Positions 14,861 to 39,642 are shown, counted from the stretch's first letter. The stretch: DNA of 39,642 nt from an uncultured Acidimicrobiaceae bacterium (GCA_964600055.1 CAZRID010000001.1:1-39642), one strand, 5' to 3'. Notes: a model not told the origin generated them from the sequence alone. Numbers and translations are program-made.

Positions 14861-14863
14861 TGG

Positions 14864-16390: not shown

Positions 16391-16397
16391 CAGGCAC

Positions 16398-18693: not shown

Positions 18694-18696
18694 GGC

Positions 18697-18993
18697 TCAG
18701 GCCTTCTTCTTGGCGGCAGTCGCCCTCTTGGCTCTCGCCTTGGCAGCGTTCGCTGCCTTGGATGCTGCCTTCTGAGCTGCGGCAGCCTTCTTGGCGGCCT
18801 GATCGGCGTCGGCCTTGACGGCCGCTGCTGCCGCGGCTTCTTTGGCGGCGAGCTCGTCCGGGGACTCGAACGTCTTGAAGCCGGAGACCGTCTTCAGCTG
18901 ATCGCCGATCCGCTCGGATACTTCGAACTCGTCGCCCTGCTGGATCACCAGCTCGGCACGGCGCGGTTTGACAGAGTCGTAGATGAGACGCAT
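18697..18993 (-). CDS. Small protein with a long Ala/Lys-rich basic tail (98 aa)
   Basis: Trimmed to the ATG at 18993, with an AGGAGG 7 nt upstream. The tail reads AAKKAAAAQKAASKAANAAKARAKRATAAKKKA. Confidence 0.65.
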   Translation of the reverse strand: MRLIYDSVKPRRAELVIQQGDEFEVSERIGDQLKTVSGFKTFESPDELAAKEAAAAAAVKADADQAAKKAAAAQKAASKAANAAKARAKRATAAKKKA

Positions 18994-19036
18994 GAACCAA
19001 CCTCCTGAGGTGGGTAGAGCGACAGATCCCGGGATC

Positions 19037-20814: not shown

Positions 20815-20823
20815 CGTTTCTCC

Positions 20824-21579
20824 TTACTTGAGGAGGAGCTGGTGCTCGCGCTCCAGCTGCTCCAGTTCCAGTAGTGCCAGTTGGGTCAGGTCCGGCCCGG
20901 GCGCGGGTGGTGTCTGTTCCCTGGAAGGGTCCGACCCGTCACCGGGTGGTGCCATTCCGATTTCCTTCCACAGCTCGGAGAGCTGTTGGGGGGAAAGTTT
21001 TCTGAGGTGGTCGGCCATGTTGCGGACGCCTTGGACTTCGGCGGCGGCGTTGGCCGGGAAGATGCAGGGCCCGTACTCGCGGAGGCGGACCTCGAGACGA
21101 TGAATCTTGGGAAGGTCGCCAGATTCCTTGGCCGGATCGATCCGCTTCGATTGGATCGGGTAGAACGCGAAGCTGTACGAGTCGATGGTGGGAGGGTCGG
21201 CCGCGATCTGGGCGAAGACTTCCTCGCCGAGCTCGGACCCGTTGAACCTGGTCGAGGTCCACAGACCTTTGCCGTCTTCTTTGACCTCGAGCGGGGCGCC
21301 GATCGGGAGGGAGTGCCGATCGGAGGGCCAGCCGTGGATGTCACAGCCATGGTTGAAGAGGCACTTGAGCTTGCGGAACCCTTTGGCGTTGTGCTCGCGG
21401 AGGGTCTTGACGAAGGCGCCCTTCTTGAAGCTCTCCATGTAGTGGCCGTCCTGCCAGTCGTAACATTCGTACTCGACGTCGAAGACCGAGGCGTAGGCGT
21501 CGACGAGGCGGTTGCCCTGCCCGTCGGTGCGGACCTGGAGGTCGATCAGTTCGAAGGCGCGGTTGAACTCAGTCTCCAC
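20824..21579 (-). CDS. Prohead protease (HK97/S78 family)
   Basis: The motifs LFNHG...PIG and DSYSFAF, and its position between portal and capsid. Confidence 0.85.
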   Translation of the reverse strand: METEFNRAFELIDLQVRTDGQGNRLVDAYASVFDVEYECYDWQDGHYMESFKKGAFVKTLREHNAKGFRKLKCLFNHGCDIHGWPSDRHSLPIGAPLEVKEDGKGLWTSTRFNGSELGEEVFAQIAADPPTIDSYSFAFYPIQSKRIDPAKESGDLPKIHRLEVRLREYGPCIFPANAAAEVQGVRNMADHLRKLSPQQLSELWKEIGMAPPGDGSDPSREQTPPAPGPDLTQLALLELEQLEREHQLLLK

Positions 21580-21600
21580 AGGGATTACCTCCGGGGGGTT

Positions 21601-22875
21601 TCAGGGCTGGGGGGTTACGGTGATCTTGCCGGCGGCCAGGAGCACCGCTCCGGAGTCGGGATCGACCACGTTCATGTTGGCGGGCCGGTAGGCCACGTTC
21701 ATCCCCTCGCGGGGTGGGTAGTTCTCCCGCCGGCGGGGCTCGTCGAGGGTGAGCCATCCGTCCTGGACGCCCTGGTGGTAAGCCTCGTAGCGGGTCTTGA
21801 TGTCGCCGCGGAGGAGGCCTTCGAGGTTGAACTCGCCGAAGGTGTTGGGGGTGACCAGGTCGCTGGCGGGATGGTTGATCCAAGCTTCGAGACGGAGACA
21901 CCACGGCCGGATCGAGTCGGTGACCGATTCGATCGACTGATGTTCGATGTTGTTGTTGGTCGACCTGGTCAGCTCGTAGAGCTTGTGCGGTGGGATCCGG
22001 AGGATCCGGGCCACCTCGGTGACCCCGAACTGGCGGGACTCGAGAAGCTGGGCATCGTCCGCCTTGAGGTCGATCGTGTTGTACGTAGCGCCGGCGGAGA
22101 GGACCGGGGTGAGATTGGCCTTCTTGAGTCCCTTGTGGAACTCGCTCATCTCCTCCTGGAGCCTCTTACGTTTGGCTGCGTCGTCGCCGGTGCCGGTGCC
22201 GCCTTTGATCGGGGCGGTCAGTTGGATGTAGTCGCGGAGGTGAGTGCCGTTGGCGAAGAAGGTGGCGGCCAGCTCGTCGGCAGCGGCGACGGTGCCGAGA
22301 CTGAGACGGTGAGCCTGAATCGGGCTGATCGGGTTGATCCCGTCGAGGCACAAGAACGGAACCCAGAAGACGTCGTGGTCGGTGTAGGTCTTCCAGTTTC
22401 CGTCAGAAACTTTGACCTCGTATACGCGGAGGCCGGTCTTCTCATCGGACTTCGGTTTGACCCGATCGGGGTGGAGGAACCGCATCCCGATCACCTGGCC
22501 GAAGGTGTCTCGCAATTTGAAGCCGGCGCAATAGCCGCGGTTGAGGAGGGAGAGCATCCACGACTCGAACAGGCTTTGCCGGATCCATCCCTCGTCGGGC
22601 TGTTCGAGCCAGACCGGACCGGCGCTGAAGGTTCGTTCGTTCTGAGTGAGCCGGCGGAAACTATCGAAGGGGAGGAAGGCGACGGTCTCGGAGAGGTAGC
22701 GGATCCCGGAGTACCAGGCGGTAATGCCAAGGGCGCGGCGGTCGCTCATAGCCACCCCGGCCGCGGTCGGCCCGTAGCCGGCGTTGCTGGCCAGCAACGC
22801 CCCGAAGTCCTCTAGGGAGAGCGGGTCGAACCTTTTCTTGGTGCGGGCGGCGGCGATACGACCGAAGGCGCTCAT
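21601..22875 (-). CDS. Portal protein (HK97 family)
   Basis: 424 aa, downstream of the terminase. General portal-like sequence character. Confidence 0.85.
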   Translation of the reverse strand: MSAFGRIAAARTKKRFDPLSLEDFGALLASNAGYGPTAAGVAMSDRRALGITAWYSGIRYLSETVAFLPFDSFRRLTQNERTFSAGPVWLEQPDEGWIRQSLFESWMLSLLNRGYCAGFKLRDTFGQVIGMRFLHPDRVKPKSDEKTGLRVYEVKVSDGNWKTYTDHDVFWVPFLCLDGINPISPIQAHRLSLGTVAAADELAATFFANGTHLRDYIQLTAPIKGGTGTGDDAAKRKRLQEEMSEFHKGLKKANLTPVLSAGATYNTIDLKADDAQLLESRQFGVTEVARILRIPPHKLYELTRSTNNNIEHQSIESVTDSIRPWCLRLEAWINHPASDLVTPNTFGEFNLEGLLRGDIKTRYEAYHQGVQDGWLTLDEPRRRENYPPREGMNVAYRPANMNVVDPDSGAVLLAAGKITVTPQP

Positions 22876-23051
22876 TCGGACTCATCCGATTCAGATTCGA
22901 GCTCGGGGCTCTGACCAACGGCCCAGCCGCGGAGCTCGGCTATCGCCAGGATCAAACCACCGGCGACGACGAGAGCCCAGCCGGGGCCGGCCACCAGGTA
23001 GATCCCGGCGGCGATCATGGCCACACCGAGCGCTTCGAGGGCATCGGTCAT
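22872..23051 (-). CDS. Unlisted 59-aa membrane protein between TerL and portal
   Basis: My translation is MTDALEALGVAMIAAGIYLVAGPGWALVVAGGLILAIAELRGWAVGQSPELESESDESE. ATGA overlaps occur at both ends. It falls below the size cutoff of the ORF track. Confidence 0.6.
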   Translation of the reverse strand: MTDALEALGVAMIAAGIYLVAGPGWALVVAGGLILAIAELRGWAVGQSPELESESDESE

Positions 23052-24739
23052 TCGTCTCCTCCCACGACGAAGGCGAAGGCCTCGTCTTCCTCGTCTTGCT
23101 CGCGGAAGGCGGCGGCGATGGCCATGACCAGGGCCACGACCCCGTCGATCTTCCCTGATGATTTCTTGCGGCTCGGCTTTTTCTTGCCGTCGGCGTCGAC
23201 CTCGGCGATCGTGTTGTCGATCATCCAGCGGAGGACCGGGTTGCCGCCATGGTGGAGTCGGGCCGAGGTGGCCAGGGCGATGAGCCGGTCGGTGGGATCG
23301 CCCAGCTCGTTGACGGTCTGACGAATGTCGTAAACCTCGAGGCCGGCTTCGTCGAGGAGCACACCCAGCTGCTTCGATTGGAAGGGGTCCTTGCCCACCT
23401 CGACTACGTCGAAGGTGCGGCGGAGGGTGTCGATCTCGGTCTCTATGAAGCGGTCATCGATGATCTCGCCGGGGGTGGCGATCACATGCTTCGAGTTGAC
23501 CCAGCCCCGCATCGCCTCTTTGAAATGTTTGGCCCATCCGTCGTAACCGTCTGAGAGGTTGGCCTCCGGGATCCAGAACCGGGCGACCACGTCGAGACAT
23601 GCCTTGGGCTCTTCACCCTTCTTGGGCTTGCGACAGTTCTTGCATTTGCCGGCCTCGTTCTTGAAGACCAGGAGAAGCGCGGCGAGGTCGGTGGTGGAGG
23701 CGTTGTCGAGGCCACCCCAGGCTTGACGCCCGCGGAGTTTCTTCTCGTCGATGATGCCGGCGGACTTGTCCCACACCATCAGGTCGAGGAGCTTGTTGGC
23801 GGCGCCGGCGGAAGGAGGGAGCCACATGCCGAGGTTGAGACGTTTGAAGCTGATCAGCTCGGCCGGGCTCTGCTCGAGCTTCGGCATCCGGGCCCGGAAG
23901 TCCTCGATCGCGAGGATGGCGTCGCCGGCTTTGACCTCCGCCCGTGTACCCAAAGCAGGGTTGGCTTGCCGCCACACCTTCTCCGATTTCCAGTCGGCGT
24001 CGGGCGGGTTGAAGTAGAGCGCCGGGTAGTAGGTCGGATCTTCGATGACGCCGGCCGCGACCTGGACCGCGTAGTCGTGCTCCTGTTTGGCGAGGAGCAC
24101 CGGGTCGTCGATGCCGGCGGTGGTGATCCCGATCAGTATCGGCTCTTGGCGGGCGATGCCCGATTTCTGCATCAGGTCCCACAGGTCGCGAGATCTCGCC
24201 CGGTGCGGCTCGTCGAACACCACCCTCGAAGCGTTGATGCCGTCCTGGACTCCGACGTCGGCCGAGATCACCCGGTAGACCGACTCGGTCTTGGGGACGT
24301 AGATGACGCCGTGGTGGGCGATCCTCGATCGGAAGACCTTGGCCCGCCGGCTGAGCAGCGGCGATGCTTCGACCATGTCGGCGGCGACGTTGAAGACGAT
24401 GGCGGCCTGGCCCTTCGAGTTGGCCACCGAGAAGACCTCGGCGCCGTTCTCGCCATCGGCGAAGAGTCCCTGAAGGGCGAGTCCGGAACCGATCGGGGAC
24501 TTGCCTTGCTTGGCGCCCATCTCCCACCAGACGGTGCGGACTACACGGAGGCCGTCCTCGTTGCGGATCCGTCCGAGGATCTGGGAGACGTGGAGACGCT
24601 GCCACGGCAACAGACGGAAGGGCTTTCCGGCCAGGTGACCCTTTACGTGGACGAGGACCTGGTCGAAGAATCTGCAGGCGTCGCCGGCGGTGGGCTGATC
24701 GAAGTACCAGTTAGTCGAGGAGGTCTGCGCCGGGCTCAT
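23048..24739 (-). CDS. terL: Terminase large subunit
   Basis: 563 aa with Terminase_1-like character (ATPase N-terminal half, nuclease C-terminal half). Follows TerS. Confidence 0.9.
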   Translation of the reverse strand: MSPAQTSSTNWYFDQPTAGDACRFFDQVLVHVKGHLAGKPFRLLPWQRLHVSQILGRIRNEDGLRVVRTVWWEMGAKQGKSPIGSGLALQGLFADGENGAEVFSVANSKGQAAIVFNVAADMVEASPLLSRRAKVFRSRIAHHGVIYVPKTESVYRVISADVGVQDGINASRVVFDEPHRARSRDLWDLMQKSGIARQEPILIGITTAGIDDPVLLAKQEHDYAVQVAAGVIEDPTYYPALYFNPPDADWKSEKVWRQANPALGTRAEVKAGDAILAIEDFRARMPKLEQSPAELISFKRLNLGMWLPPSAGAANKLLDLMVWDKSAGIIDEKKLRGRQAWGGLDNASTTDLAALLLVFKNEAGKCKNCRKPKKGEEPKACLDVVARFWIPEANLSDGYDGWAKHFKEAMRGWVNSKHVIATPGEIIDDRFIETEIDTLRRTFDVVEVGKDPFQSKQLGVLLDEAGLEVYDIRQTVNELGDPTDRLIALATSARLHHGGNPVLRWMIDNTIAEVDADGKKKPSRKKSSGKIDGVVALVMAIAAAFREQDEEDEAFAFVVGGDE

Positions 24740-25337
24740 TGTCCGCAGTCACCGGGAGCTTGAGCCGGCCACGGCTCGAGAGGCCGAGGCCGAACTCGGA
24801 GGCGTAGACCTTGACCGCCGTCCGATACTGGTTGAGAACGGTGGCGATCGGATGGCGGACGATCCCCCGCTCGCCGGCGATGGTGAGCCCTTCCACCGAA
24901 AGGGCCCGCTCACATTGATCGATCCGGGCGACGCAGACGCAGTAGTCGGCCAAGGCACCGAGGTCGAGGACCGTCAAAAGCTTGTAGCGGATCAGCTCGG
25001 GTGCGATCCGCCGCCACTCATGCGATGCAATCTTCCGGGTGCGGGTCAGCTCGCGGCTCTTCCCCGTCCACGACTCGTGGGCCCAGTTGTACCTACGTTC
25101 GGCCGCCACCCGGTTGGTGACCGACTTCTCGTCGTCGCCTTCGTCGAAGAGCTCGGGGTAGGACGCCATCGCCGGCTTGATCGGGGGAGGGAACCACTCC
25201 TTCCAGTCCGGCTCGCGGATGTCGGAGATAGAGGCGACCGCCACCACCGGAATCGTCTCGGGGATCGGGCGCTTGCCAGGATTGCCGAGGATCAGCTTCA
25301 AATGGGGATGTTTTGGCTTTCGGCCAGGGCTTGCCAT
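24711..25337 (-). CDS. terS: Terminase small subunit (P27 family)
   Basis: Trimmed to the ATG at 25337, with SD gggaggtgg. The N-terminus GRKPKHPHLKLILGNPGKRPIPE is typical of the P27 family. Confidence 0.8.
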   Translation of the reverse strand: MASPGRKPKHPHLKLILGNPGKRPIPETIPVVAVASISDIREPDWKEWFPPPIKPAMASYPELFDEGDDEKSVTNRVAAERRYNWAHESWTGKSRELTRTRKIASHEWRRIAPELIRYKLLTVLDLGALADYCVCVARIDQCERALSVEGLTIAGERGIVRHPIATVLNQYRTAVKVYASEFGLGLSSRGRLKLPVTADNEPGADLLD

Positions 25338-25462
25338 GCTTTTCCACCTCCCTGGAGCGCAATGCTGTGGATTTCGCGGCGGCTCGCGGCTTATGAACCA
25401 GATCGGGCCTATTGGACTCGAGTCGAGAGGAATCGACCCCCCCCTACCCCTTCCTCGAAGGG

Positions 25463-25852
25463 CTACCCAGACCGGCGAGCGTTGCAAGCTCGGCAAAGGA
25501 CCCGGAGCTCGCCGAGCGGATCACCACCGGCAGCAATCGAGTCAAGGTGATCCGCGGTGAGATCTCGAGAAGTGTGCGCCGGCACACCCCAACCAGGGCA
25601 CCACCATCCATGTCGAACGACGTGGGAAACGACGGCTTCCGCACGTCGTCGACGATCGGCTCGAGAGCGCGGTGTCGTTGTCTCGTGGCGGTCGCAGCGC
25701 GGCGGGCGGTTACGAGTGAGGCGGCCGCACCGTCGACCGTTCGCGAGCTTGGCGCCACATGGACGCTTGGGTCGAAGACTCAAGCTGGTCGTCGCATCAA
25801 CCGCAAGAGCCTTAGCCAGAAGTGCAGCCTTCGGCATCCGACTCGGTCGCAC
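25463..25852 (-). CDS. HNH endonuclease
   Basis: Motif DLTADHLDSIAAGGD...LRVLCRACNARR. Its position upstream of TerS is typical of HK97-like cos phages. Confidence 0.8.
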   Translation of the reverse strand: MRPSRMPKAALLAKALAVDATTSLSLRPKRPCGAKLANGRRCGRLTRNRPPRCDRHETTTPRSRADRRRRAEAVVSHVVRHGWWCPGWGVPAHTSRDLTADHLDSIAAGGDPLGELRVLCRACNARRSG

Positions 25853-25925
25853 GCACCACGCATGGGCGGGAGGTTGTCGTACTCAGTTCCCCAAGCTCCG
25901 TTCAGATCCCAACCTGACGTGCCCA

Positions 25926-26126
25926 TCAGTTTCCGGCGGAAACTTTCGTCTTGTCATCGACCTCGACACGGAAGGCAGCCGCAACCAGGCGGGCAGTAGC
26001 CACCGCTGCGCGCTTGGTTTTGTACATCTCCGAGGTGTAGAGGATCCGGCCATTGGCTCCTCGGATCCTCGACCAGTACTCGCGGGTCTTGACGCTGCGA
26101 TAGACCTCAACACGGAACCTGGTCAC
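25926..26126 (-). CDS. DUF1508 (YegP-like) protein, 66 aa
   Basis: Trimmed to the GTG at 26126 (GTGA overlap). The motif FRVEVYRS...YWSRIRGANGRILYTSEMYKTKRAA matches the YegP repeat pattern. Confidence 0.65.
   Translation of the reverse strand: MTRFRVEVYRSVKTREYWSRIRGANGRILYTSEMYKTKRAAVATARLVAAAFRVEVDDKTKVSAGN
25929..25943 (-). promoter_or_regulatory. parS-like palindrome copy 4
   Basis: The minus strand reads aaaGTTTCCGCCGGAAACtga. It overlaps the last codons and the stop of the DUF1508-like gene, at the early/packaging boundary. Confidence 0.6.
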
Positions 26127-26428
26127 GATCCGACGACCGATCCGTCTTCCCACTTGAACTCGGCGACGCCCGCATGGAGTCCACACTTGACGCAGTAGGT
26201 AGCTCCGTAGAACGTGGGTTGGGCCGCATAGGTCTCAGCGAGTGCCTGGCCCATCGAGGTGGCAGCACCGCAGAGGTTGTGGATGTAGGTCTTGCGCACT
26301 GGGCGGATGAAGCCTCGGGACCGCTCTTCGTCGCTCAGCACCAGGTAGACCTCGGCCTGTGGTCGTGGCTCGGTGTCGGTGCCTCGAGACAGTCTCGGGT
26401 CGGTGGGATCCGAAGTGGTTCCGCTCAT
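26123..26428 (-). CDS. Hypothetical Cys-containing protein (101 aa)
   Basis: Trimmed to the ATG at 26428. Contains LCGAAT...YCVKCG. Confidence 0.5.
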   Translation of the reverse strand: MSGTTSDPTDPRLSRGTDTEPRPQAEVYLVLSDEERSRGFIRPVRKTYIHNLCGAATSMGQALAETYAAQPTFYGATYCVKCGLHAGVAEFKWEDGSVVGS

Positions 26429-26499
26429 GACTGGGACCGCCCTTTCGGTTTTGTGTGGTGAGCCCATCGGAGGCGCTGGCACTTCGGGAAGCGGGCGGA

Positions 26500-26622
26500 G
26501 TCAGGTACCTGGATGAGTTCGCATTCCGATTCAACAATCGGGACAACACGTTCCGGTTCCGTGACACCTTGCAACGTCTGTGTCAAAGCGAAGTGTTGAC
26601 ATATCAGGAACTTGTGTCCTGA
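26500..26622 (+). pseudogene. IS1595-family transposase C-terminal remnant
   Basis: The plus-frame translation VRYLDEFAFRFNNRDNTFRFRDTLQRLCQSEVLTYQELVS* carries the YLDEFxFRFNxR C-terminal signature. No upstream transposase body is present (in-frame stop at 26428-26430). Confidence 0.6.
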
Positions 26623-27266
26623 GGTGCGATTCCACCCATAGGCATCCCAGAAATCGCCTCCGTCAGGGTTCGGCGCCAGTGTTCGACCATAACGGGAGGA
26701 ACCGCGAACCCTACGCGTTCGAATGTGCAACGCCGAAATACGACCCCCACCATTCCGATGACGCCCGCCGTAGGTTGGGGTTCTAGACCGAACACGACCG
26801 TGACTATCGGAGAGGTAAAGGTGACCGTTCCGTCGAAGTGCGGACCCGGTGGACTGGTCGGGGTCAACACAGCCGGACCCACAATCCGACAGTCCTGAAA
26901 TATCTTGTTGCTGATGATCGGCGTCCCGACGCGCACCATATCGACCACGTTGATCCGTCGATGATTGATGACCTGAGCAGCTAACTCCTCGTCGGTGGCG
27001 ATAGGCAATTCACCGAAGTCGGAGGCGGGGGGTGAGGAACTAGGCGCTACGGCGAGCAATTGCGGACGCCACGTTCCAAGCGCAGCCAGGACAAGCGAAA
27101 AAACCCCGATCCCAAGGACCGCGATCCAGAGACCCGGAAGGTCTGTAAGAGTGCGCAGCACAAACGAGGCGACGCTGCTCACGCCGAGACCCCACCACAC
27201 GAAATGGAGGGTCGAAATGTTGCCGAGCCACCTCCACGCAATCGCCAAAACGCTACGACCCGACAT
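26604..27266 (-). CDS. Membrane protein (2 N-terminal TM helices plus a soluble domain), moron gene
   Basis: 220 aa with hydrophobic N-terminal helices, in the lower-GC stretch. No family recognised. Confidence 0.55.
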   Translation of the reverse strand: MSGRSVLAIAWRWLGNISTLHFVWWGLGVSSVASFVLRTLTDLPGLWIAVLGIGVFSLVLAALGTWRPQLLAVAPSSSPPASDFGELPIATDEELAAQVINHRRINVVDMVRVGTPIISNKIFQDCRIVGPAVLTPTSPPGPHFDGTVTFTSPIVTVVFGLEPQPTAGVIGMVGVVFRRCTFERVGFAVPPVMVEHWRRTLTEAISGMPMGGIAPQDTSS

Positions 27267-27451
27267 CCCGAGAATCGTAGTGACGGGTTAGGACGCGACT
27301 GAGTCACTTATACCGTCCTGTATGAGGCAGGTGAGCACGGCCGGGCTGCTCTGCGCCGCTGTGGGAGGTTTGGGGGCCAGTACCTCGTGGGGGAGGTCGG
27401 CTCACTCCAATAACCGGGACCATAGACACCGTCTGTCAAGGATTTGTGGAT

Positions 27452-27700
27452 TTAGTTCCGACAGTGTGTTTTCGAGCAATGCGCGGTTTGCAGCTGTTCG
27501 AGTGTCTTGACCCGGCCAGCCTTCAGATCGGCTTCGGCGGCGGCGAGGTCGTGTCGGAACCAGCAGCTAACCAGCTCCAGGTCGAGGGTCACCCGGTCGC
27601 CTAGACGTTCCCCAATCGGGATACCGCAGCACGGCATCAGGTGGCTTCCGATCGGTGGGCACATGTGGGTCACGACATCGGTTGCAATCTCGTCACTCAC
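27452..27700 (-). CDS. Cys-rich small protein (82 aa), moron gene
   Basis: GTG start directly after the 25-nt leader repeat. Contains HMCPPIGSHLMPCCG and a C-terminal AAAEADLKAGRV helix. Confidence 0.5.
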   Translation of the reverse strand: MSDEIATDVVTHMCPPIGSHLMPCCGIPIGERLGDRVTLDLELVSCWFRHDLAAAEADLKAGRVKTLEQLQTAHCSKTHCRN

Positions 27701-28136
27701 GTTTCACCTTCTCTTTCAGGCTTTGGGGCTGAGAGGGGGATAAGGAAACGCCAGCCGCATTCGGCGTGTCTGCCCTGTCCAACCTCGTCGCCCGCGAAAA
27801 GGATGCAGTGGGTTCTACGGGATGACCACCAGGGGGAGTCACGGCCCAAATTATCGGGCCGTCGTCAGTGGCATTACCTTCAAGCGGCAGCGTGGCAACT
27901 AGCAGCGACTCACCGATGAGTCCGTACATCTCCCACCCGACCTCGTCCCACCAGTCAGCAAGCCAGCAACCTGGGCGCTTACCGCTGCTCTCGATCGTGC
28001 AGCCCAACTCGTCGGGGCAGACAACATGGCCCCTCGCGCCTTCCCACTCCAACCAAACCTCGAACTTGTGGGCATTGACGGGAAGGCATGTTCCTAGCGA
28101 TTCTCCGTCCAAGTAGTACGGGATGCGCTCGCTCAT
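27693..28136 (-). CDS. Hypothetical protein (147 aa), moron gene
   Basis: ATGA-coupled to the 35-aa ORF upstream. Trp/Cys-rich N-terminal part. No family recognised. Confidence 0.5.
   Translation of the reverse strand: MSERIPYYLDGESLGTCLPVNAHKFEVWLEWEGARGHVVCPDELGCTIESSGKRPGCWLADWWDEVGWEMYGLIGESLLVATLPLEGNATDDGPIIWAVTPPGGHPVEPTASFSRATRLDRADTPNAAGVSLSPSQPQSLKEKVKRE
27707..27731 (-). repeat. 25-nt leader repeat, copy 1
   Basis: The minus strand reads CAGCCCCAAAGCCTGAAAGAGAAGG and ends 6 nt before the GTG at 27700. It is identical to 28250-28274. Confidence 0.85.
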
Positions 28137-28240
28137 TCGTCGTCCCAGTTTCGGCCCTGAAAGATCGCTCCGCCCTCACCGTCTGGATAGATGATGGATG
28201 GTGCGCCTTCGATCGCCTCTTGAACTGTCGCAACTCTCAC
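28133..28240 (-). CDS. Unlisted 35-aa ORF behind leader repeat copy 2
   Basis: My translation is VRVATVQEAIEGAPSIIYPDGEGGAIFQGRNWDDE. The GTG lies 9 nt after the repeat, and the stop overlaps the next start (ATGA). Confidence 0.4.
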   Translation of the reverse strand: MRVATVQEAIEGAPSIIYPDGEGGAIFQGRNWDDE

Positions 28241-28249
28241 TTCGGGCTC

Positions 28250-28274
28250 CCTTCTCTTTCAGGCTTTGGGGCTG
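28250..28274 (-). repeat. 25-nt leader repeat, copy 2
   Basis: Identical 25-mer, ending 9 nt before the GTG at 28240. Confidence 0.85.
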
Positions 28275-28326
28275 GGTCAGTCATATACGATCGAAGTTGA
28301 ATCGAGGTCCTTGCAACCATCGCATG

Positions 28327-28821
28327 CTATGCGGCCTCACCGTCGCCGGCCCGGAGCTTGAACCCGCACCACGTGCAATAACGTTCGAGGAGGATCCCGA
28401 GCGGTTGATGACACTGCCGGCATGAGCGTCTCGTCGATCGCACCTCGGGGGTGGTCCGGTTGAACGTGGCGACCTCGCCGGTCAGCTTGTGCAAATGGTC
28501 CATCACCCCCTCGAGGAAGTTGTGGGCGTAGACGGGGGTCGGGTCGAACATCGGGGGCTCCCCCCCGCCGGTGATCTTCGGCTTGTCAGTCCGGATCGCC
28601 TGATTCGCATCCGACAGGAGAGCGGTGGCGTCGACCTGGAAGAGGAACTCACGGACGATCGACTGATGGTCCGGTGTCAGGTCGCGGACCCATCCGATCT
28701 GTTTGCGGAGCTCCTCAGCGGTGCCGACGTGAGCCCGGATCGTTTTCTCGGCCTGGGCGAGTTTCCGCTCCAGCTCGGCGATGCGAGGCCCTCGCTTATC
28801 GGTGAGATGTTGCCTAGCCAT
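28327..28821 (-). CDS. Coiled-coil protein with a C-terminal zinc ribbon
   Basis: Contains AELERKLAQAEKTIRAH and a C-terminal CRQC...CTWC. The start could be the ATG at 28821 or the GTG at 28827. Confidence 0.55.
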   Translation of the reverse strand: MARQHLTDKRGPRIAELERKLAQAEKTIRAHVGTAEELRKQIGWVRDLTPDHQSIVREFLFQVDATALLSDANQAIRTDKPKITGGGEPPMFDPTPVYAHNFLEGVMDHLHKLTGEVATFNRTTPEVRSTRRSCRQCHQPLGILLERYCTWCGFKLRAGDGEAA

Positions 28822-28975
28822 CGACACAGTCCCAACAGACGAAAACTGGGACCGCTCCTTCTTCTTGGATGGAGATGCGGATGGTGGCGAGCTCGCCGCA
28901 TTGGGTGCATGGCCGGCGGTCGGTGACGTCGTCGTCGATGGTGGCGTGGAGGCCCTCGTCGGGTTCAGTTGCCAT
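28814..28975 (-). CDS. Unlisted 53-aa zinc-ribbon protein
   Basis: My translation is MATEPDEGLHATIDDDVTDRRPCTQCGELATIRISIQEEGAVPVFVCWDCVDG (CxxC...CxxC). It overlaps both neighbours. Confidence 0.5.
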   Translation of the reverse strand: MATEPDEGLHATIDDDVTDRRPCTQCGELATIRISIQEEGAVPVFVCWDCVDG

Positions 28976-29267
28976 CGATTACCTCGGGGAGCATGAAGAC
29001 GGGGAGTCGGGTGCCTGGGAAGCCGAGGACGATGAGACCTCCGGCTTGGAGTTTTTCGAGGTCGCCTTCCTCGAGGGTGAGGACGACGGAGGTAACCGGC
29101 CAGAGGGTGCCTTCCGCGGAGCCGGTGGGGTGGACCTGGTAGGTGACGGCTTCGGCTGGGGGGATCACCGGGTCGTTGAGGTCACCGTTGGGCGCTGTCC
29201 AGATGGCGCGTGTGGCTTCGGGTCCGAATTGGGCGAGGAGTCCGGCAGAGATAGGGATTGGTCTCAT
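28965..29267 (-). CDS. Hypothetical early protein (100 aa)
   Basis: Trimmed to the ATG at 29267 (ATGA overlap). Confidence 0.5.
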   Translation of the reverse strand: MRPIPISAGLLAQFGPEATRAIWTAPNGDLNDPVIPPAEAVTYQVHPTGSAEGTLWPVTSVVLTLEEGDLEKLQAGGLIVLGFPGTRLPVFMLPEVIDGN

Positions 29268-29659
29268 GGGATGGCCTGGCCACCGTCGGGGCATACGAGG
29301 CAGTCCTCGAGGAGGTGATCCCAGCTGTCCCAGGTGAACTCGCCTGGAGGCATCTTGAGATCGGCTTTGAATCCGGGCGGGGGTTGGCGGGGGACCATCT
29401 CGAGGGTGATGACATGGGCGAGGAGTTGGCGGAAACCGCCGGGGAGGGGGGTGCCTTCGTCTTGAGACGTTCCCAAGTCGTCGATGACGTCGAGAACTGC
29501 CTGGCAGATCGGATGGGCCCGATAGGTCCACATGTCGTCTTCGAAGATGCCGACTGACTTGATGTAGATGGTGCCGGCAGGGATCGGCCATTCGCACAGT
29601 TGGCACTGGTGGTCTTTGCGGGCTGTTGGTTGGCTTGCGCTCAACTGGATCCAGCTCAT
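29264..29659 (-). CDS. Hypothetical Cys/His-containing early protein (131 aa)
   Basis: ATG at 29659 in an ATGA overlap. Contains CQLC...HPIC. Confidence 0.5.
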   Translation of the reverse strand: MSWIQLSASQPTARKDHQCQLCEWPIPAGTIYIKSVGIFEDDMWTYRAHPICQAVLDVIDDLGTSQDEGTPLPGGFRQLLAHVITLEMVPRQPPPGFKADLKMPPGEFTWDSWDHLLEDCLVCPDGGQAIP

Positions 29660-30033
29660 GGCCGCCACCCTTTCATCGTCTCGGCGGCTCTAAGGTCGAA
29701 AAGGAGTCCGTCGTCGGTGGCGATGATCCCGGGGAACCTTTGGGCGAGGGCTTCGCAGAGGAGGCGGGCTTCCTGTTCGACCTGGTTGGAGAATTCGCCG
29801 CCGGTGAAGACACCTTTGGCGATGAGGAGTTGGATGAGGGCAGACGATTCGGCTCGGAGGATCAGGGTCAATTCGCGGTGGTTGCGGACGGCGTCGCCTT
29901 CCGGGTCGCCCTTGGCACGGGTACCGAGTTGCCAGCCGGCCAGCAACACCCGCCACTTGCCGAGACGGTTCAGCCAGGGCAGACGGGACTGGTACGGGGA
30001 CGGATCGGGACCATCGGGATCAGGCATCGTCAT
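29656..30033 (-). CDS. Hypothetical early protein (125 aa)
   Basis: ATGA overlap with the upstream gene. Good GC3 bias. Confidence 0.55.
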   Translation of the reverse strand: MTMPDPDGPDPSPYQSRLPWLNRLGKWRVLLAGWQLGTRAKGDPEGDAVRNHRELTLILRAESSALIQLLIAKGVFTGGEFSNQVEQEARLLCEALAQRFPGIIATDDGLLFDLRAAETMKGWRP

Positions 30034-30677
30034 CGGGACCGCTTCCAGGCGACCCGCGGCGGGTTGGCCTGGCCTCGGATCTCGGCGTGGACCTGGCCGG
30101 TGCTGTCAACGACTCGCACGACGTCGAATCCCACCTTGCGGATGAAGAACGGAGCCATGACGCCGGGCGTGAACGCGGCGGCGGCTTGGAGGCCGGCCTC
30201 GAGGATGGCGATGGCGGCCCATTGTTGGTTGGAGGCGCAGAGCATCGCGCCGAGTGCGTACTCGCAGCCGGATCCGACAGCGGAGAGTCCTACTTCGGTC
30301 TCGATGAAGGAGAGGTCAGAACTGAATTCGAACAGCCGACTCCGGTAGCCGACCAACGCTGACCCTGATTCCTCCCGATCGTTTTCCTTCTTCAACCATC
30401 CCTCCGACTGGAGGGCGTTACGCACCGTCGGGACGAACTCTTTGACCAGGTACTCCTCGGCGTCCTTGCGGACGTCGTACGGAGGTTCGGTCCGATATTG
30501 GAGGATCTGGCCGAATCGGAAGCTGGTGGTGTAACCCAGAACCAGAGTCCCGGATCCGGTGTGGAGCTCGACCAGCTTGGGGGTCTTGAGAGCGGCCCGC
30601 CAGTTGGGAGAGGCGCCACAAGCATCGCCTCCGAGCCAGACGTCGCCGTCGTTGACGACTCCGACGATCGCGGTCAC
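30030..30677 (-). CDS. HslV/proteasome-beta-like Ntn-hydrolase-fold protein (215 aa)
   Basis: Trimmed to the GTG at 30677 (GTGA overlap). The N-terminus (M)TAIVGVVNDGDVWLGGDA places Thr at position 2. GSGCEYALGA resembles the HslV motif GSGGxYAL. Confidence 0.55.
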   Translation of the reverse strand: MTAIVGVVNDGDVWLGGDACGASPNWRAALKTPKLVELHTGSGTLVLGYTTSFRFGQILQYRTEPPYDVRKDAEEYLVKEFVPTVRNALQSEGWLKKENDREESGSALVGYRSRLFEFSSDLSFIETEVGLSAVGSGCEYALGAMLCASNQQWAAIAILEAGLQAAAAFTPGVMAPFFIRKVGFDVVRVVDSTGQVHAEIRGQANPPRVAWKRSR

Positions 30678-30895
30678 GAGTGGGTCCTCTGTTTGCGGTA
30701 GTCGTCGGCTTTGGGACAGACGGCGTGGTGGGGGAGGTAGGTGTCGACGATCCGGACCTGGGGCTCGCCGGCTTCGTCCATCGAGACGACCGCGGCCCGC
30801 TTCTCTTTGCTGGCGGCGTGGAGGGGGATGGGCCGGTCGGTGTTCTTCGACCGGGCCCAGACGATTTCGGCGTTGCAGCCGCGGCAATGGTTCAC
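30674..30895 (-). CDS. Small zinc-finger-like protein (73 aa)
   Basis: Trimmed to the GTG at 30895 (GTGA overlap). Contains CRGC...HHAVC. Confidence 0.5.
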   Translation of the reverse strand: MNHCRGCNAEIVWARSKNTDRPIPLHAASKEKRAAVVSMDEAGEPQVRIVDTYLPHHAVCPKADDYRKQRTHS

Positions 30896-31335
30896 GGTTG
30901 GAACCGGCGGATGAGAGCGGCGACGATCGGGAAAAGGGTACGGACCGCGGCGATGTCGGCTTCCGGTTCGGCGTGGCGCCACAGGTAGGTGACGGCGGCG
31001 GCGTCGCCGTTGAGCCAGCCGGTGACGAGGGCGGCGGCGAGGTGGCCACCTTCGGTCTGGTCGACGTCGGCCGGGAAGAACGCCTGCCAGTTCCGGCCGG
31101 TGGTGGGGACGACACTTTTGGCTACTGCGAGGAGTCCGTAGACGACGTCGGACCACATGGCGTGGGCGGCGACGCTGAACGTTTCGGGGTCGGTCAGATC
31201 AGGGTCGGGGAGGGTGCGGGCGATCTCGACCAGGTACGGATCCAGCACGTGGAGCTCAGAGTTTCCGACCAGGGCTTTGAGAGCGTTGGAGATGAGCCCG
31301 ATACGGCGGAGGTCGGTTTCCGGCGGAAACCTCAT
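30892..31335 (-). CDS. Hypothetical early protein (147 aa)
   Basis: Trimmed to the ATG at 31335 (ATGA overlap). Codons 3-7 are formed by parS-like copy 5. Confidence 0.5.
   Translation of the reverse strand: MRFPPETDLRRIGLISNALKALVGNSELHVLDPYLVEIARTLPDPDLTDPETFSVAAHAMWSDVVYGLLAVAKSVVPTTGRNWQAFFPADVDQTEGGHLAAALVTGWLNGDAAAVTYLWRHAEPEADIAAVRTLFPIVAALIRRFQP
31316..31330 (-). promoter_or_regulatory. parS-like palindrome copy 5
   Basis: The minus strand reads atgagGTTTCCGCCGGAAACC. It lies at the junction after the wHTH gene. Confidence 0.6.
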
Positions 31336-31739
31336 GGCCGGGTCCCGTAGAGGTGGGCCTGGCGGTGGGCGTCCAACACGATCCGGAGGGGGTGGCCGTT
31401 GGGGTTGGAGAGGAACTCGCCGCATGAACATTGGTAGCCGGAGATGAGGGTCGGAGGCCAGGACCGGTCCGACGGTTTGCGGTCAGCCCAGAAGCGGGTG
31501 CGGGGACCGAGATGGGTTTGGTGGACCCGTTTGCGGATGACGTCGGCTTTGGCGAGGCGGTGGAGCTCTCCGCGGACAGTGCCAAGGCCGACGTCGAGCC
31601 GGTCGGCGACCTGACGGGGAGTCCAGGCGGTGCCGGTGTCGGAGAGCAGCAGGTCGAGGATCTGGTGGATGACCGAACCGACCTTGACTTGAGGCTCACC
31701 ACACCAGTAGCAGGAGCGGGCTGGGACCGCGGCGGTCAT
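31332..31739 (-). CDS. Winged-helix (MarR-like) DNA-binding protein with Cys pairs (135 aa)
   Basis: IHQILDLLLSDTGTAWTPRQVADRLDVGLGTVRGELHRLAKADVIRKR is a wHTH pattern. Also contains CYWCG and CSCG. Confidence 0.55.
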   Translation of the reverse strand: MTAAVPARSCYWCGEPQVKVGSVIHQILDLLLSDTGTAWTPRQVADRLDVGLGTVRGELHRLAKADVIRKRVHQTHLGPRTRFWADRKPSDRSWPPTLISGYQCSCGEFLSNPNGHPLRIVLDAHRQAHLYGTRP

Positions 31740-32179
31740 TAGAAGACGTCCACGGTTTCGTCTTCGGATTCGGGTGAAGCCTGGTCGAGGACGACGGTTT
31801 GTTCGGTGCCGCATTTGACGCAGATCCGGGTTTGGTATCCGCCTTCGGCTGGCCATGGTTGCCAAATGTGGGGGCACCAGGTGGGGTCGGTCGGGTCGAC
31901 GTCGTCGGGGATGTTCTTTTTGGCGGCGGTTTTAGCGGCGGCTCGGAGCTCGTCGGCGTGTGGAGGCCGGCCTTTGCCTTCGTCGTACCAGACGCGGGCC
32001 GCCTGCCAGATCGCTTTGGCGGGGATCCGTTCGAAGTCGGGGTAGAGCACTTCGGCTCGGGACGGTGGGGCCGGCTCGCCGGTTTTCGGTTTGGGGGTGG
32101 CCCATTCGCGGGAGCGGGGCCAACGGTCGACGATCCAGTCGACGATGTCGACCCACTCGTCGGGCCGGCAGGCGCTCAT
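31739..32179 (-). CDS. Hypothetical early protein (146 aa)
   Basis: Coupled on both sides. C-terminal CVKCG. Confidence 0.5.
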   Translation of the reverse strand: MSACRPDEWVDIVDWIVDRWPRSREWATPKPKTGEPAPPSRAEVLYPDFERIPAKAIWQAARVWYDEGKGRPPHADELRAAAKTAAKKNIPDDVDPTDPTWCPHIWQPWPAEGGYQTRICVKCGTEQTVVLDQASPESEDETVDVF

Positions 32180-32472
32180 ACCGGCTCCGCAATCTGAGCG
32201 AGAGCCTCGAGGAGGTCCTCGACGACGAATTGAGGATCGACCCAGAAGGTGGAACCTGTCTCATCGGCGAGCCGGCTTCGCACTTTCAGCTTGGCAACGA
32301 ATGCCTCCGTTGCTCGGGCCTTAGACGACGTGTCGACGGACACGAGAAGCTTCCAACCGCAGTCGGGACGATGTTTCGGCCGACCAGTGATGTAGCAATG
32401 GTTGGGTCCGCCGGGAAGGTTCGAGATGCGAGGCCCATCCATGCTCGGTTCGATGCAGAGCCAGACTTTCAT
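32176..32472 (-). CDS. Hypothetical early protein (98 aa)
   Basis: Trimmed to the ATG at 32472 (TGATG overlap). Confidence 0.45.
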   Translation of the reverse strand: MKVWLCIEPSMDGPRISNLPGGPNHCYITGRPKHRPDCGWKLLVSVDTSSKARATEAFVAKLKVRSRLADETGSTFWVDPQFVVEDLLEALAQIAEPV

Positions 32473-32873
32473 CACGTCAGCACCTGGCGGATCACCCCGG
32501 ATGACCAGTCCGACGGCCGCCACAGATACCACGAGTTGGGGAGGGCCAGCTGCCACTTCTCCTGGTCGCGGGTCAGGCTCCCCTTCTCCGATTTGAACTC
32601 GACGAACAGGACCATGCCTCGGCGGGCGAAGACGACGTCGGGGAAGCCGGGGTCGCCCTGGATCGGGGTGGCCATGTGGCCCTTGGTCCAGGCCGGCCGG
32701 GTGTGCATCGCCAGCCAGCCGCGGAGGTGGGCGTAGTCGATGACGGCGGTCTGGAGCTCGCCCTCGAGCATGGCCCGGTCGAGAGTCTTGCGGGCAGGGC
32801 TGCGCTCCGGTAGCACCAGGTCCTCATCTGGGCCCGGATCGAACCGCAACTCGGAGATCGGGATCCGGCTCAT
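32472..32873 (-). CDS. VRR-NUC domain nuclease (133 aa)
   Basis: Trimmed to the ATG at 32873. The motif EGELQTAVIDYAHLRGW...GDPGFPDVVFARRGMVLFVEFKSEKGSLTRDQEKW is the PD-(D/E)xK VRR-NUC pattern. Confidence 0.75.
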   Translation of the reverse strand: MSRIPISELRFDPGPDEDLVLPERSPARKTLDRAMLEGELQTAVIDYAHLRGWLAMHTRPAWTKGHMATPIQGDPGFPDVVFARRGMVLFVEFKSEKGSLTRDQEKWQLALPNSWYLWRPSDWSSGVIRQVLT

Positions 32874-33895
32874 GCCACACCGGCTTTCGAGGCGGCCGGC
32901 TTGCAGCTCGGACACGGATAGGTCTCTTCGCCGGCGTCGCCATGGTCGACTGGGACCGCGGTGCCGGTTGGGGTGTGGGCGATGAGTCCGCGGCCGCCGC
33001 ATTGGCCGCAGGGTGGGCCGCCGATCGGGGTGACTGGGGAGGTTCGGTCGAGGTTGAACCGGGCCCAGTTGGAGGCGAGGCCGAGTGGGGTGTACTCGAG
33101 GCGTTTCGGTTCGACCCAGGTGCGGCGGTAGATCTTCGATCGGCGAAGGACTTCGGTGGGGGTGGCTTTGGACTCTCGGAGGAGTTTGGCCGCCCGGTTC
33201 CATTTGCCCCGTTCGGAGCCGTTGGTCGGTTGCGGATATCCGGCTTCGATGAGGGCGTCCCAGATCGGGTCGGCCGGTCTCGGTTGCGGAGCGGTTTCGC
33301 GTTCGACCGTAGGGAGAACTAATGGTGGTTCTTGATGGTTCCCTTTAGAGACCGGCAATGGGTTGCCGGTCTTAACGACGTCTGGTTGCCGGTCTTGATT
33401 CGCGTTAAGACCGGCAATGGGTTGCCGGTCTTGGCCGGGAACTACAACCACTTTCGCGGACTGCCCTTGAGCGGCAATGGGTTGCCGGTCTTGGCCGGTT
33501 TCGGGCCCGATCGAGGACTCGGATGGTTCCGATCCGGTGGCCGGGTTAAGACCGGCAATGGGTTGCCGGTCTTGATCGGTGAGGTCGATGACGAGCTCGT
33601 CGTCGGAGTTGATAGCTTCGATCAGGCTGGGCCAGCTGATCGCATGGGAAGCTTCGGGGATCCGGAGTTGATACTCCTGGGAGGCTTGCCGGCGGCGGGC
33701 GGCGACGTCGACCAGACCGAGCCGGCGGAGCGTCTCAAGGTGGTGGCGGACCGTCCGTTCAGCCCCGGACACCGCCCGGGCGAGTGACGCTTGGCCGGGA
33801 TGGCAGCGGCCGTCGTCGTTGGCATGGTCGGCGAGTCGGAGGAGGAGCAATTTGAGATGGCCGGGGAGGCCATCCATCTCCCACACTTTCGACAT
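32870..33895 (-). CDS. HTH replication-initiator-like protein with an internal DRQPIAGLN repeat linker (341 aa)
   Basis: N-terminal wHTH (LLLLRLADHANDDG...ASLARAVSGAERTVRHHLETLRRLGLV), an internal repeat linker encoded by the palindrome array, and a C-terminal CGQCGG...CPSC. Confidence 0.6.
   Translation of the reverse strand: MSKVWEMDGLPGHLKLLLLRLADHANDDGRCHPGQASLARAVSGAERTVRHHLETLRRLGLVDVAARRRQASQEYQLRIPEASHAISWPSLIEAINSDDELVIDLTDQDRQPIAGLNPATGSEPSESSIGPETGQDRQPIAAQGQSAKVVVVPGQDRQPIAGLNANQDRQPDVVKTGNPLPVSKGNHQEPPLVLPTVERETAPQPRPADPIWDALIEAGYPQPTNGSERGKWNRAAKLLRESKATPTEVLRRSKIYRRTWVEPKRLEYTPLGLASNWARFNLDRTSPVTPIGGPPCGQCGGRGLIAHTPTGTAVPVDHGDAGEETYPCPSCKPAASKAGVA
33349..33572. repeat. Palindromic iteron-like array (candidate origin of replication)
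   Basis: AGACCGGCAATGGGTTGCCGGTCT occurs exactly at 33349-33372, 33408-33431 and 33549-33572. A 22/24 copy lies at 33468-33491 and a right half-site at 33386-33395. A comparatively AT-rich stretch flanks it at about 33311-33348. Confidence 0.6.
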
Positions 33896-33906
33896 GAGGC
33901 GGATGC

Positions 33907-34281
33907 TCAAGATGGTTCTCCCAGGTAGGCGGCGGCGACGGTCCCGTCGTCGTTGAGCACCACCCGCCACTGTCCCCGCCGGTCGCTCGCCGGCATCAGC
34001 GCCTGGCCGTCGAGCTCGAGGGCAGTGGCACCCGACATGACCAGCGCACCGACCAGCTGGCAGAGAATCTGCTCCTCGGACAGCATCACGGTCGCTGTAG
34101 CAACCTCAGTAATCGTGTAGGAGCGTTTCTTGGCGGAGGTGTGGCCGTCGGGTAAGACCCGCAAGGTTCGACCGGCCAGGGTGACCTCGTGCGCCGACTC
34201 ATGTGAGTGGGCGGATCGGAGAGTCGACACCGTCAACGACGTCGCCTTCACCGTCCGCTCGAGGTGGGGCTGCCAAGTCAT
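33907..34281 (-). CDS. Hypothetical early protein (124 aa)
   Basis: ATGA-coupled to the upstream gene. Confidence 0.5.
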   Translation of the reverse strand: MTWQPHLERTVKATSLTVSTLRSAHSHESAHEVTLAGRTLRVLPDGHTSAKKRSYTITEVATATVMLSEEQILCQLVGALVMSGATALELDGQALMPASDRRGQWRVVLNDDGTVAAAYLGEPS

Positions 34282-34538: not shown

Positions 34539-34834
34539 ACCGGCACCCCCTCCGGATCTCCGGCCGGGTCATACGGCTTCGGGGTGGGATCGGTCGAGAT
34601 GGCGATAGCCAACGCCGCCGCCAGGATCCGCACCGCTTCGTCGTGGACGTTGTAACCGAGGCCGGGGAACCGGGCCGCGATGGCGAACTTGCCGACATGC
34701 TCCGACAGTGAGGCCAGCTGGACGAGGGGCGGCGAATGGAGAACAGACTCGCCGGCGAAAAGGGACTCGTCGTCGATCATCAACTCGGTCGCCTTCGACA
34801 CCAGCACCGTGATCCGATCCGGATGCGTGTACAT
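34535..34834 (-). CDS. Hypothetical early protein (99 aa)
   Basis: 1-nt overlap with the ParB-like stop. Confidence 0.5.
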   Translation of the reverse strand: MYTHPDRITVLVSKATELMIDDESLFAGESVLHSPPLVQLASLSEHVGKFAIAARFPGLGYNVHDEAVRILAAALAIAISTDPTPKPYDPAGDPEGVPV

Positions 34835-39629: not shown

Positions 39630-39642
39630 CAAGAGGTCGTGA

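Follow-up and report, generated by a model that had tools for sequence, protein, structure and literature searches.

What is a short block of visibly lower guanine-plus-cytosine (GC) content doing between the early genes and the packaging genes of a phage, and do its products resemble anything that has been seen before? The question is raised by positions 26429–28326 of a 39,642-bp contig from an uncultured Acidimicrobiaceae bacterium (GCA_964600055.1, CAZRID010000001.1:1-39642), the whole of which we call the window and whose gene set is that of a temperate tailed phage. A preliminary description had taken this block for an acquired moron cassette of four unrecognized genes. Here, we propose that the largest of the four open reading frames (ORFs), encoding 220 amino acids (aa), very probably contains a divergent Knotted Solenoid-family domain behind a predicted membrane anchor, and that the block as a whole is, on balance, best read as a mosaic of acquired accessory genes. 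Its genes, protein domains, and gaps are as follows.

26604-27266, minus strand: 220-aa ORF; predicted membrane anchor, Pro/Ser linker, and C-terminal Knotted Solenoid-family domain
27069-27266, minus strand: codons 1-66 of the 220-aa gene; membrane anchor predicted from AlphaFold2 (AF2) helices and Kyte-Doolittle hydropathy
26661-26948, minus strand: codons 107-202 of the 220-aa gene; Knotted Solenoid-like domain, IFQDCRIVGPAV ... HFDGTVTF ... VFRRCTFERVGF
27452-27700, minus strand: 82-aa ORF, a Cys/His-rich ORFan
27693-28136, minus strand: 147-aa ORF
28133-28240, minus strand: 35-aa ORF, a doubtful gene
26429-26603, 27267-27451, and 28241-28326: intergenic gaps of 175, 185, and 86 nt

None of the four products has a significant match in Pfam, PHROGs, NCBIfam, or PADLOC, and the 220-, 147-, and 82-aa proteins are singletons in a search of 5.8 billion protein clusters, a test limited to shared 5-residue words. 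The 220-aa gene nonetheless bears a coding signature along its length, and its product finds partners among proteins of known structure. When compared with the PDB by phmmer at an expectation value (E) of ≤10, it matches three entries and no others, 9SOJ (E 0.0069), 9QIX (E 0.014), and 9RDS (E 0.74), all of which are Knotted Solenoid structures (Sikora et al., PNAS 2026; PMC13123833). This family comprises 184 members, all bacterial and 51% from Caulobacteraceae, which are typically 100-160 aa long and of unknown function; their chain forms a trefoil (3_1) knot by means of a “skip-and-backtrack” order of solenoid coils, and they assemble as symmetric homodimers through an exposed hydrophobic face (PMC13123833). 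The alignment of the phage protein with 9SOJ spans chain residues 11-128 of 139, including the knot core, with small indels only; across the core itself, loop lengths in the two proteins differ merely by 2-residue indels. Shuffling either partner 200,000 times never reproduced the real score between the phage protein and the PDB entries, and hhalign of the phage domain against the three PDB fragments returned a probability of 76%.

Motif agreement points the same way. The family is characterized by Phe-x-x-Cys at the start of coils 2, 3, and 4 and by Gly-Pro where the knot core begins (PMC13123833). In the phage protein, Phe-x-x-Cys recurs in coil 2 (FQDC) and coil 4 (FRRC), while the knot-core Gly-Pro is present in IVGPAV, aligned with FQGPAI of 9SOJ and with EGPAV of members retrieved from metagenomes. 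More generally, IFQDCRIVGPAV and VFRRCTFERVGF occupy positions that align with the family motifs, and the domain shares with canonical members the F-x-x-C at two coil starts, the Gly-Pro, and a terminal F..C.F..VGF motif.

To widen the sampling with independent members of the family, the phage domain was aligned to the PDB fragments and metagenome contigs were scanned with the result, which yielded 12 loci encoding proteins of ~130-140 aa. A profile built from 11 of these members, containing neither PDB nor phage sequence, matches almost the entire length of 9QIX, 9RDS, and 9SOJ at E ~1e-28, and the metagenomic proteins are therefore genuine family members. By hhalign, the same profile matches phage residues 107-199 with 97.5% probability, E 8e-12, and 35% identity. 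A hidden Markov model (HMM) of the 12 metagenomic sequences and two PDB fragments, from which the phage protein was excluded, scores the latter at 48.7 bits, the highest of 200,000 shuffles reaching 12.7, and matched no other ORF in a six-frame translation of the window.

Several points count against this assignment. The 48.7-bit and 97.5% figures are somewhat flattered, because the phage protein was involved, through patterns and tblastn, in the retrieval and confirmation of the members. The third coil of the phage domain (HFDGTVTF) lacks both family cysteines. Pfam Pentapeptide_3 (PF13576) is reached by 11 of 11 canonical members but not by the phage protein (E ≤ 0.1), and the single-sequence AF2 model of residues 72-220 is unusable, with a predicted local distance difference test score (pLDDT) of <50, such that the fold search starting from it is meaningless. 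In the original study, family membership was assigned at a HMMER cutoff of 1e-3 (PMC13123833), and on the evidence above we take the homology of the phage domain to family members to be significant. The unbiased anchors of the homology are, as judged from sequence, the direct PDB matches (E ~0.007-0.014) together with the agreement of motifs. Weighing these observations, we consider it very likely that residues ~107-202 of the 220-aa protein form a divergent Knotted Solenoid-family domain of ~30-35% identity. The earlier statement that none of the four products could be recognized accordingly stands for the 82- and 35-aa ORFs, but no longer for the 220-aa protein, with its Knotted Solenoid domain, or for the 147-aa protein, which belongs to a small family found on phage-like contigs.

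In architecture, the phage version appears to be an outlier of its family. Canonical Knotted Solenoids look like soluble proteins of ~135 aa and components of a housekeeping operon, whereas the phage protein sets an N-terminal membrane anchor and a Pro/Ser linker before the solenoid. The proposal that the 220-aa product is a membrane protein is borne out by a definite hydrophobic transmembrane helix at residues 43-66 (Kyte-Doolittle maximum 2.42 at 45-64), accompanied by a second, weaker one at residues 19-37 (1.41). Single-sequence AF2 models this region as a helical hairpin, with helices at 3-42 and 44-64 and pLDDT 75-88. Where the C-terminal domain resides depends on how many of these helices span the membrane: a single span would place it outside the cytoplasm, two would place it inside. 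The main text of the Knotted Solenoid paper does not deal with gene context, and the N-terminal extras that it lists do not include a membrane anchor (PMC13123833).

Genomic context further separates the phage gene from the canonical members that we examined. In all eight metagenomic loci with enough flanking sequence, the canonical gene lies between pheS (358 aa) and pheT (~800 aa), in the operon order infC-rpmI-rplT-pheS-Knotted Solenoid-pheT, and several of them carry two tandem paralogues, a type A marked by “IWLPQL” and a type B, the crystallized Brevundimonas form, marked by “ILPINRP”.

L173:6833-11135, L175, L177, L178, L179, L180, L181, and L182 (metagenome contigs): pheS-Knotted Solenoid-pheT loci

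The 220-aa gene, on the other hand, is phage-encoded and lies outside any pheS-pheT context. Searching for further phage-borne members, tblastn of INPHARED with the phage protein, 9SOJ, and a type-A member gave nothing meaningful, and three pattern scans of IMG/VR found none. The 220-aa protein appears to be the first phage-encoded and the first membrane-anchored member of the family.

What might a membrane-tethered solenoid do? Two comparisons help to frame the question. The nearest unknotted relatives of Knotted Solenoids are the pentapeptide-repeat proteins, although the coils of the knotted proteins are triangular rather than quadrilateral (PMC13123833). The repeated Phe/Cys at coil starts of the phage domain is reminiscent of this group, which includes DNA mimics of the Qnr/MfpA/McbG kind, yet no pentapeptide protein in the PDB matches the phage protein at E ≤ 10. 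The other comparison is with HalA, described by Tan et al. 2025 (PMC13434031; PDB 9NYI), in the part of that paper on which we draw, as the transmembrane DNA-gated ion-channel effector of the Hailong defence system. The canonical Knotted Solenoid profile weakly matches the pentapeptide-like region of HalA (9NYI chain A residues 72-157) at E 2.5e-5, which suggests that the cytoplasmic part of HalA and the Knotted Solenoids share repeat ancestry. The phage protein resembles HalA in overall idea only, combining transmembrane helices with a pentapeptide-like beta-solenoid, a likeness at the level of the repeat superfamily. Unlike HalA, it has 220 rather than 371 residues and no PADLOC match; it does not match HalA by phmmer against the PDB at E ≤ 10, and Pfam and PHROGs reveal no HalB-like nucleotidyltransferase domain among the neighbouring genes. 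For the phage protein, we therefore treat HalA as an analogy and nothing closer.

It is conceivable that the 220-aa protein dimerizes through its solenoid as canonical members do and, from the membrane, binds or sequesters a conserved host partner. Such a partner might be linked to phenylalanyl-tRNA synthetase or tRNA, if the pheS-pheT context is a guide, or the protein might act by nucleic-acid mimicry, if the pentapeptide kinship is; in either case host physiology, or the entry of competing phages, could be modulated. These ideas are speculative. That a membrane-held, dimeric solenoid binds the conserved cellular partner of its family is a rather unlikely proposition as matters stand, and the fuller version, in which the phage captured a Knotted Solenoid domain, tethered it to the membrane, and turned it on that partner (perhaps one connected with phenylalanyl-tRNA synthetase or tRNA-Phe, or a nucleic acid) for host takeover or exclusion, is a little less likely still. 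Were the fuller version true, the captured solenoid would provide the first functional handle on the Knotted Solenoid fold. Independently of it, the pheS-pheT context and the phage member offer two leads to the function of the fold, toward partners linked to phenylalanyl-tRNA synthetase and toward phage-host interaction.

We turn to the origin of the block, for which base composition is the most immediate evidence. Across 26429-28326, GC stands at 0.591; the contig averages 0.644, with a standard deviation (SD) of 0.017 over 1898-bp windows, so that the departure is ~3 SD. Among all windows of that size it is the minimum, and the 0.13% that are equally low every one overlap the block. At a resolution of 300 bp, the dip extends from ~26,400 to ~28,300 and so coincides with gene boundaries, beginning where the next gene starts and ending at the stop codon of a 166-aa gene. 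All 40 reference genes exceed the 220- and 147-aa genes in total GC, by which the 82-aa gene is third lowest; at third codon positions (GC3), the three genes range from 0.66 to 0.71, compared with means of 0.775 overall and 0.753 among early genes. In these respects the preliminary description holds up well: its three hand counts (30/60, 38/60, and 46/60 G+C) are exact, the lower GC that it reported is upheld by the sliding-window test, which returns the lowest window of the contig though the shift is modest, and its four same-strand ORFs and their gaps, the 185-nt one included, are where it had placed them.

A second line of evidence is a perfect 25-bp direct repeat, to be considered together with the 147-aa gene that it helps to delimit.

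28250-28274, minus strand: direct repeat copy 1, CAGCCCCAAAGCCTGAAAGAGAAGG; ends 9 nt upstream of the GTG of the 35-aa ORF
27831-28136, minus strand: conserved all-beta domain, codons 1-102 of the 147-aa gene
27693-27830, minus strand: non-conserved tail, codons 103-147 and stop of the 147-aa ORF; crosses the hairpin and repeat copy 2
27748-27767, minus strand: putative terminator-like hairpin with a 6-bp stem, 4 GC pairs, and the T-rich tail TTCCTTATCC; directly upstream of repeat copy 2
27707-27731, minus strand: direct repeat copy 2, identical to copy 1; ends 6 nt upstream of the GTG of the 82-aa ORF

A full HMMER pass over 1.84 billion representatives recovered seven relatives of the 147-aa protein (E 3e-12 to 2e-4), of 107-143 aa and 30-45% identity, all matching within residues 1-98. 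H23, C40, C46, C57, W62, and E69 are invariant in the family alignment, and the set of one histidine and three cysteines would be compatible with a zinc site. Four of the seven relatives were located, in eight loci, and these are phage-like arrays of short, same-strand, overlapping genes on contigs of 51-65% GC; the array around homologue P0009, for example, includes RusA, WhiB, and DNA methyltransferases. Their neighbours are not conserved with the window. The family profile has no match in Pfam, PHROGs, or the PDB. A moderate AF2 model from eight sequences is all-beta, with a pLDDT of 59 and 72-83 over residues 1-50, and when submitted to Foldseek it retrieved nothing below E 0.4 from the PDB and BFVD.

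The remainder of the 147-aa ORF has a different character. Its tail is matched by no homologue, is predicted to be disordered (pLDDT <50), and has GC at codon positions one, two, and three (GC1/2/3) of 0.60/0.58/0.60, without the codon-position pattern seen in the conserved domain (0.61/0.49/0.72). Judging from these features, the tail is probably read-through into a recombination joint. The two repeat copies lie 543 bp apart and bracket a unit made up of the 35- and 147-aa ORFs. No 25-bp match arose in 100 shuffles, and the repeat is the longest exact one of the contig outside its iteron array. It has a sharp upstream boundary, preceded by unrelated sequence, and only patchy matches after it, and each copy provides a purine-rich ribosome-binding site (Shine-Dalgarno region) for the GTG start that follows 6-9 nt on. 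Further copies were found neither in the window at ≤3 mismatches, nor in IMG/VR, nor in 182 fetched loci, and hence the sequence is neither a dispersed “start-associated sequence” nor a known mobile-element end. Inverted repeats flanking the 543-bp unit are absent.

In essence, the repeat pair looks like an insertion scar. The 147-aa gene, along with some leader, would have landed in the region where translation of the 82-aa gene is initiated, and 25 bp would have been duplicated in the process. The insertion would have created a 35-codon upstream ORF from copy 1, while the 147-aa ORF, having lost its original stop, would now read through its old terminator and copy 2 to a TGA that overlaps the start of the 82-aa gene. 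The 35-aa ORF itself has GC3 (0.556) below GC1 (0.667), no coding signature, a stop that overlaps the ATG of the 147-aa gene (ATGA), and no homologue in the loci that hold 147-aa relatives; it is doubtful as a gene and is probably no more than an upstream ORF that repeat copy 1 initiates by chance. A 25-bp repeat carrying a ribosome-binding site would offer a clean, datable scar of one small gene spliced into the translation-initiation region of another.

Taken together, composition and repeat scar support acquisition, probably in more than one event, and we find it somewhat more plausible than the alternatives combined that the block is a patchwork of accessory genes, acquired and dispensable, whose transcription continues from the operon upstream. 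How well does the word moron describe it? A moron, in the sense of Juhala and Hendrix, is a supernumerary gene that brings its own promoter and terminator and lies between two genes which are neighbours in related phages. Like morons, the block is atypical in composition, contains extra intergenic DNA, lies between modules, and carries a repeat that resembles an insertion scar; unlike them, it has no promoter or terminator of its own that we could detect, and its genes are co-oriented with those on either flank. A scan of 25800-29000 found 0 sigma-70 consensus promoters, although the host’s promoter type may differ from that consensus, and no terminator follows the 220-aa gene, all terminator-like hairpins being inside ORFs. 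TTGACA and TATAAG hexamers can be picked out by eye in the 185-nt spacer (27267-27451), at a spacing that is not promoter-like. This spacer folds no better than its shuffles (z = +1.15), and Rfam has no match in the block, spacer included. The genes would be transcribed by read-through with the surrounding same-strand operon, not as an autonomous moron expressed in lysogeny. Of the earlier reading as an acquired moron cassette, therefore, acquisition survives, on the strength of composition, the 25-bp repeat, the patchy 147-aa family, and three singletons, while a moron in the strict sense is not borne out.

The reading as a mosaic of acquired genes has its own weaknesses. The GC shift amounts to only ~5 points, with GC3 values that overlap the low end of other early genes (0.71-0.72), and the two 25-bp copies might rather be an operator, regulatory or translational, that two genes have in common. 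Moreover, the phage is without a close sequenced relative in the collections searched: megablast of 20000-33000 and blastn of 25800-29700 found no DNA match among 50,697 phage records, the best identities of its large terminase (TerL) are 36% in INPHARED, 45% in IMG/VR, and 39% among one genome per GTDB species, the cassette and its flanking small genes are absent from all 160 loci retrieved through TerL, and exact-protein look-ups returned no record of a cassette protein with gene context. A 90% cluster that does hold TerL is represented by an unrelated, AT-rich, 49-aa peptide from Logan contigs (one of two such peptides), a clustering artefact rather than a relative. In the absence of a close phage relative in these collections, presence and absence cannot show insertion, and the genes could be old residents of the lineage. 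One could accordingly argue that nothing was acquired: these would be lineage-specific small early genes, their low GC due to intergenic DNA and to weak codon selection in genes that are short and poorly expressed, and the repeat a shared translational or regulatory site. A second low-GC stretch at 14864-16438 (~14.9-16.4 kb; GC 0.601), which corresponds to a 524-aa beta-helix gene, can be cited in its favour, as can the other early genes at GC3 0.71-0.72, the Shine-Dalgarno region within each copy 6-9 nt from two GTG starts, and the lack of relatives in which to score presence. Yet of all windows of its size the block has the lowest GC, and its edges fall at gene ends; a recent duplication fits a perfect, sharply bounded repeat with unrelated sequence upstream better than a conserved operator does; copy 2 falls inside a non-conserved ORF tail without coding signature; and the 147-aa relatives are scattered over unrelated phage-like contigs of 51-65% GC with non-conserved neighbours. 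We regard the absence of any acquisition as distinctly improbable. A different reading sees a moron expressed in lysogeny that shields the lysogen through superinfection exclusion or abortive infection: the membrane-bound 220-aa protein would keep the DNA of incoming phages from entering or act as a membrane effector, and the small proteins would be its partners. In favour of this are the temperate nature of the phage (integrase, tRNA-Asn, XRE-like regulator), the low GC of the block, a 220-aa product that is membrane-anchored, a 185-nt gap before its gene, and the weak match of the canonical Knotted Solenoid profile to HalA. Against this, the phage protein itself does not match HalA and has no HalB-like nucleotidyltransferase nearby, neither a sigma-70-type promoter nor a terminator past the 220-aa gene was detected, and canonical family members occupy a housekeeping operon, not defence islands. 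Because the block genes share a strand with the early and late genes that flank them, expression in the lysogen is not implied either. PADLOC-DB 2.0 contributed 0 families for the four products at E ≤ 1, in a 2023 release from which newer systems may be lacking, and none of the library searches supplies positive evidence for defence, superinfection exclusion, or a toxin-antitoxin system, as had been suggested for the cassette. A role in protecting the lysogen thus strikes us as unlikely.

Two further proposals can be given far less weight. The first pairs the 147-aa protein as toxin with the 82-aa protein as Cys-rich antitoxin. These are small genes that overlap by 8 nt, the end of the 147-aa ORF running past the GTG start of the 82-aa gene, and the preliminary description had drawn attention to a predicted C-terminal helix in the 82-aa protein that it likened to those of antitoxins. 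The likeness goes unsupported, since no antitoxin family in Pfam, NCBIfam, or PADLOC matches, nor does any toxin family. With six cysteines (C14, C24, C25, C46, C75, C80) and five histidines (H12, H20, H50, H74, H79), the 82-aa protein has no detectable relative and no match above significance to Pfam, PHROGs, NCBIfam, PADLOC, or the PDB; its best library score, to PHROG 10431 of unknown function, is a non-significant E 0.027. In the eight loci where four of the seven 147-aa homologues are encoded, the adjacent gene is never related to the 82-aa protein, and the overlap between the two genes arises from the non-native tail of the 147-aa ORF crossing the repeat joint. A toxin-antitoxin pair is, on these grounds, highly improbable, and the evidence does not support labelling the block as either a defence or a toxin-antitoxin system. 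The other proposal is delivery by an insertion sequence (IS) element, of which a decayed transposase would survive at the edge of the block.

26455-26622, plus strand: 55-codon ORF previously called a transposase remnant; unsupported

This ORF contains the peptide YLDEFAFRFNNR, which resembles the C-terminal motif of IS1595-type transposases, a likeness that searches did not confirm, and its GC1/2/3 of 0.61/0.41/0.64 is mildly coding-like. It has no transposase match in Pfam (E ≤ 0.1), NCBIfam (E ≤ 1), or PADLOC and none by tblastn against 72,556 plasmids at E ≤ 10, tests that a short transposase fragment could escape. A regular expression for the motif had no match among 2.5 Mb of fetched loci. 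Upstream of the ORF, there was no sign of additional transposase-like frames, and the block lacks terminal inverted repeats. We consider delivery by an IS element hardly credible; with the remnant unsupported, the argument for acquisition that had been drawn from it fails. The case for a mosaic of acquired accessory genes rests instead on composition and on the repeat scar. As such, the block is ordinary: accessory blocks of unknown genes at module junctions are common in phages.

The position of the block becomes apparent from the genes that surround it, nearly all of which, other than the integrase, are on the minus strand.

210-1064, plus strand: tyrosine integrase
23048-24739: TerL, 563 aa
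24711-25496: small terminase (TerS)
25463-25852: HNH endonuclease, past the block
30030-31115: HslV-like peptidase, an early gene
32870-33970: lambda-O-like replication initiator, an early gene
34834-36255: ParB-like protein, an early gene
39557-39630: complete tRNA-Asn(GTT), adjoining an XRE-like ORF (both within 39300-39630, at the right end)

With early genes on one side and HNH, TerS, and TerL on the other, the block sits between the early and packaging regions, as the preliminary description had it. TerL is followed by portal, capsid, beta-helix fibre proteins, tape measure, and an amidase endolysin. Directly upstream of the block, a 166-aa gene (28327-28827) has a coiled-coil-like N-terminus and a C-terminal CxxC...CxxC zinc-ribbon motif (CRQCHQ...CTWCG) and matches no family. 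Such a place, immediately ahead of the packaging genes, would be fitting for a late-gene regulator.

Elsewhere in the window, the run from 13379 to 19000 consists of four large genes. Beta-helix or fibre-like domains occur in three of them, whereas the fourth (13379-14860) has internal repeats of 50-100 nt at 13511-14170; this run is probably a host-range module swapped among phages. If the contig is circular, the integrase at its left end and the XRE-like ORF and tRNA-Asn at its right would be adjacent, as expected of the phage attachment site (attP) and immunity region. Within the replication-initiator gene, 33342-33579 contains four copies of a 38-nt repeat, ~60 nt apart and each with the palindromic core AGACCGGCAATGGGTTGCCGGTCTT; these resemble iterons and probably mark the replication origin. 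Finally, a 15-16-nt palindrome, GTTTCCG(G/C)CGGAAAC, occurs at least five times, mostly at gene boundaries, with one copy at the stop of a DUF1508-like gene directly downstream of the block.

104-121, 3543-3560, 13042-13057, 22393-22410, 25926-25943, and 31313-31330: palindrome sites

To judge from its form and placement, this palindrome could be the binding site of a regulator or a short terminator hairpin.

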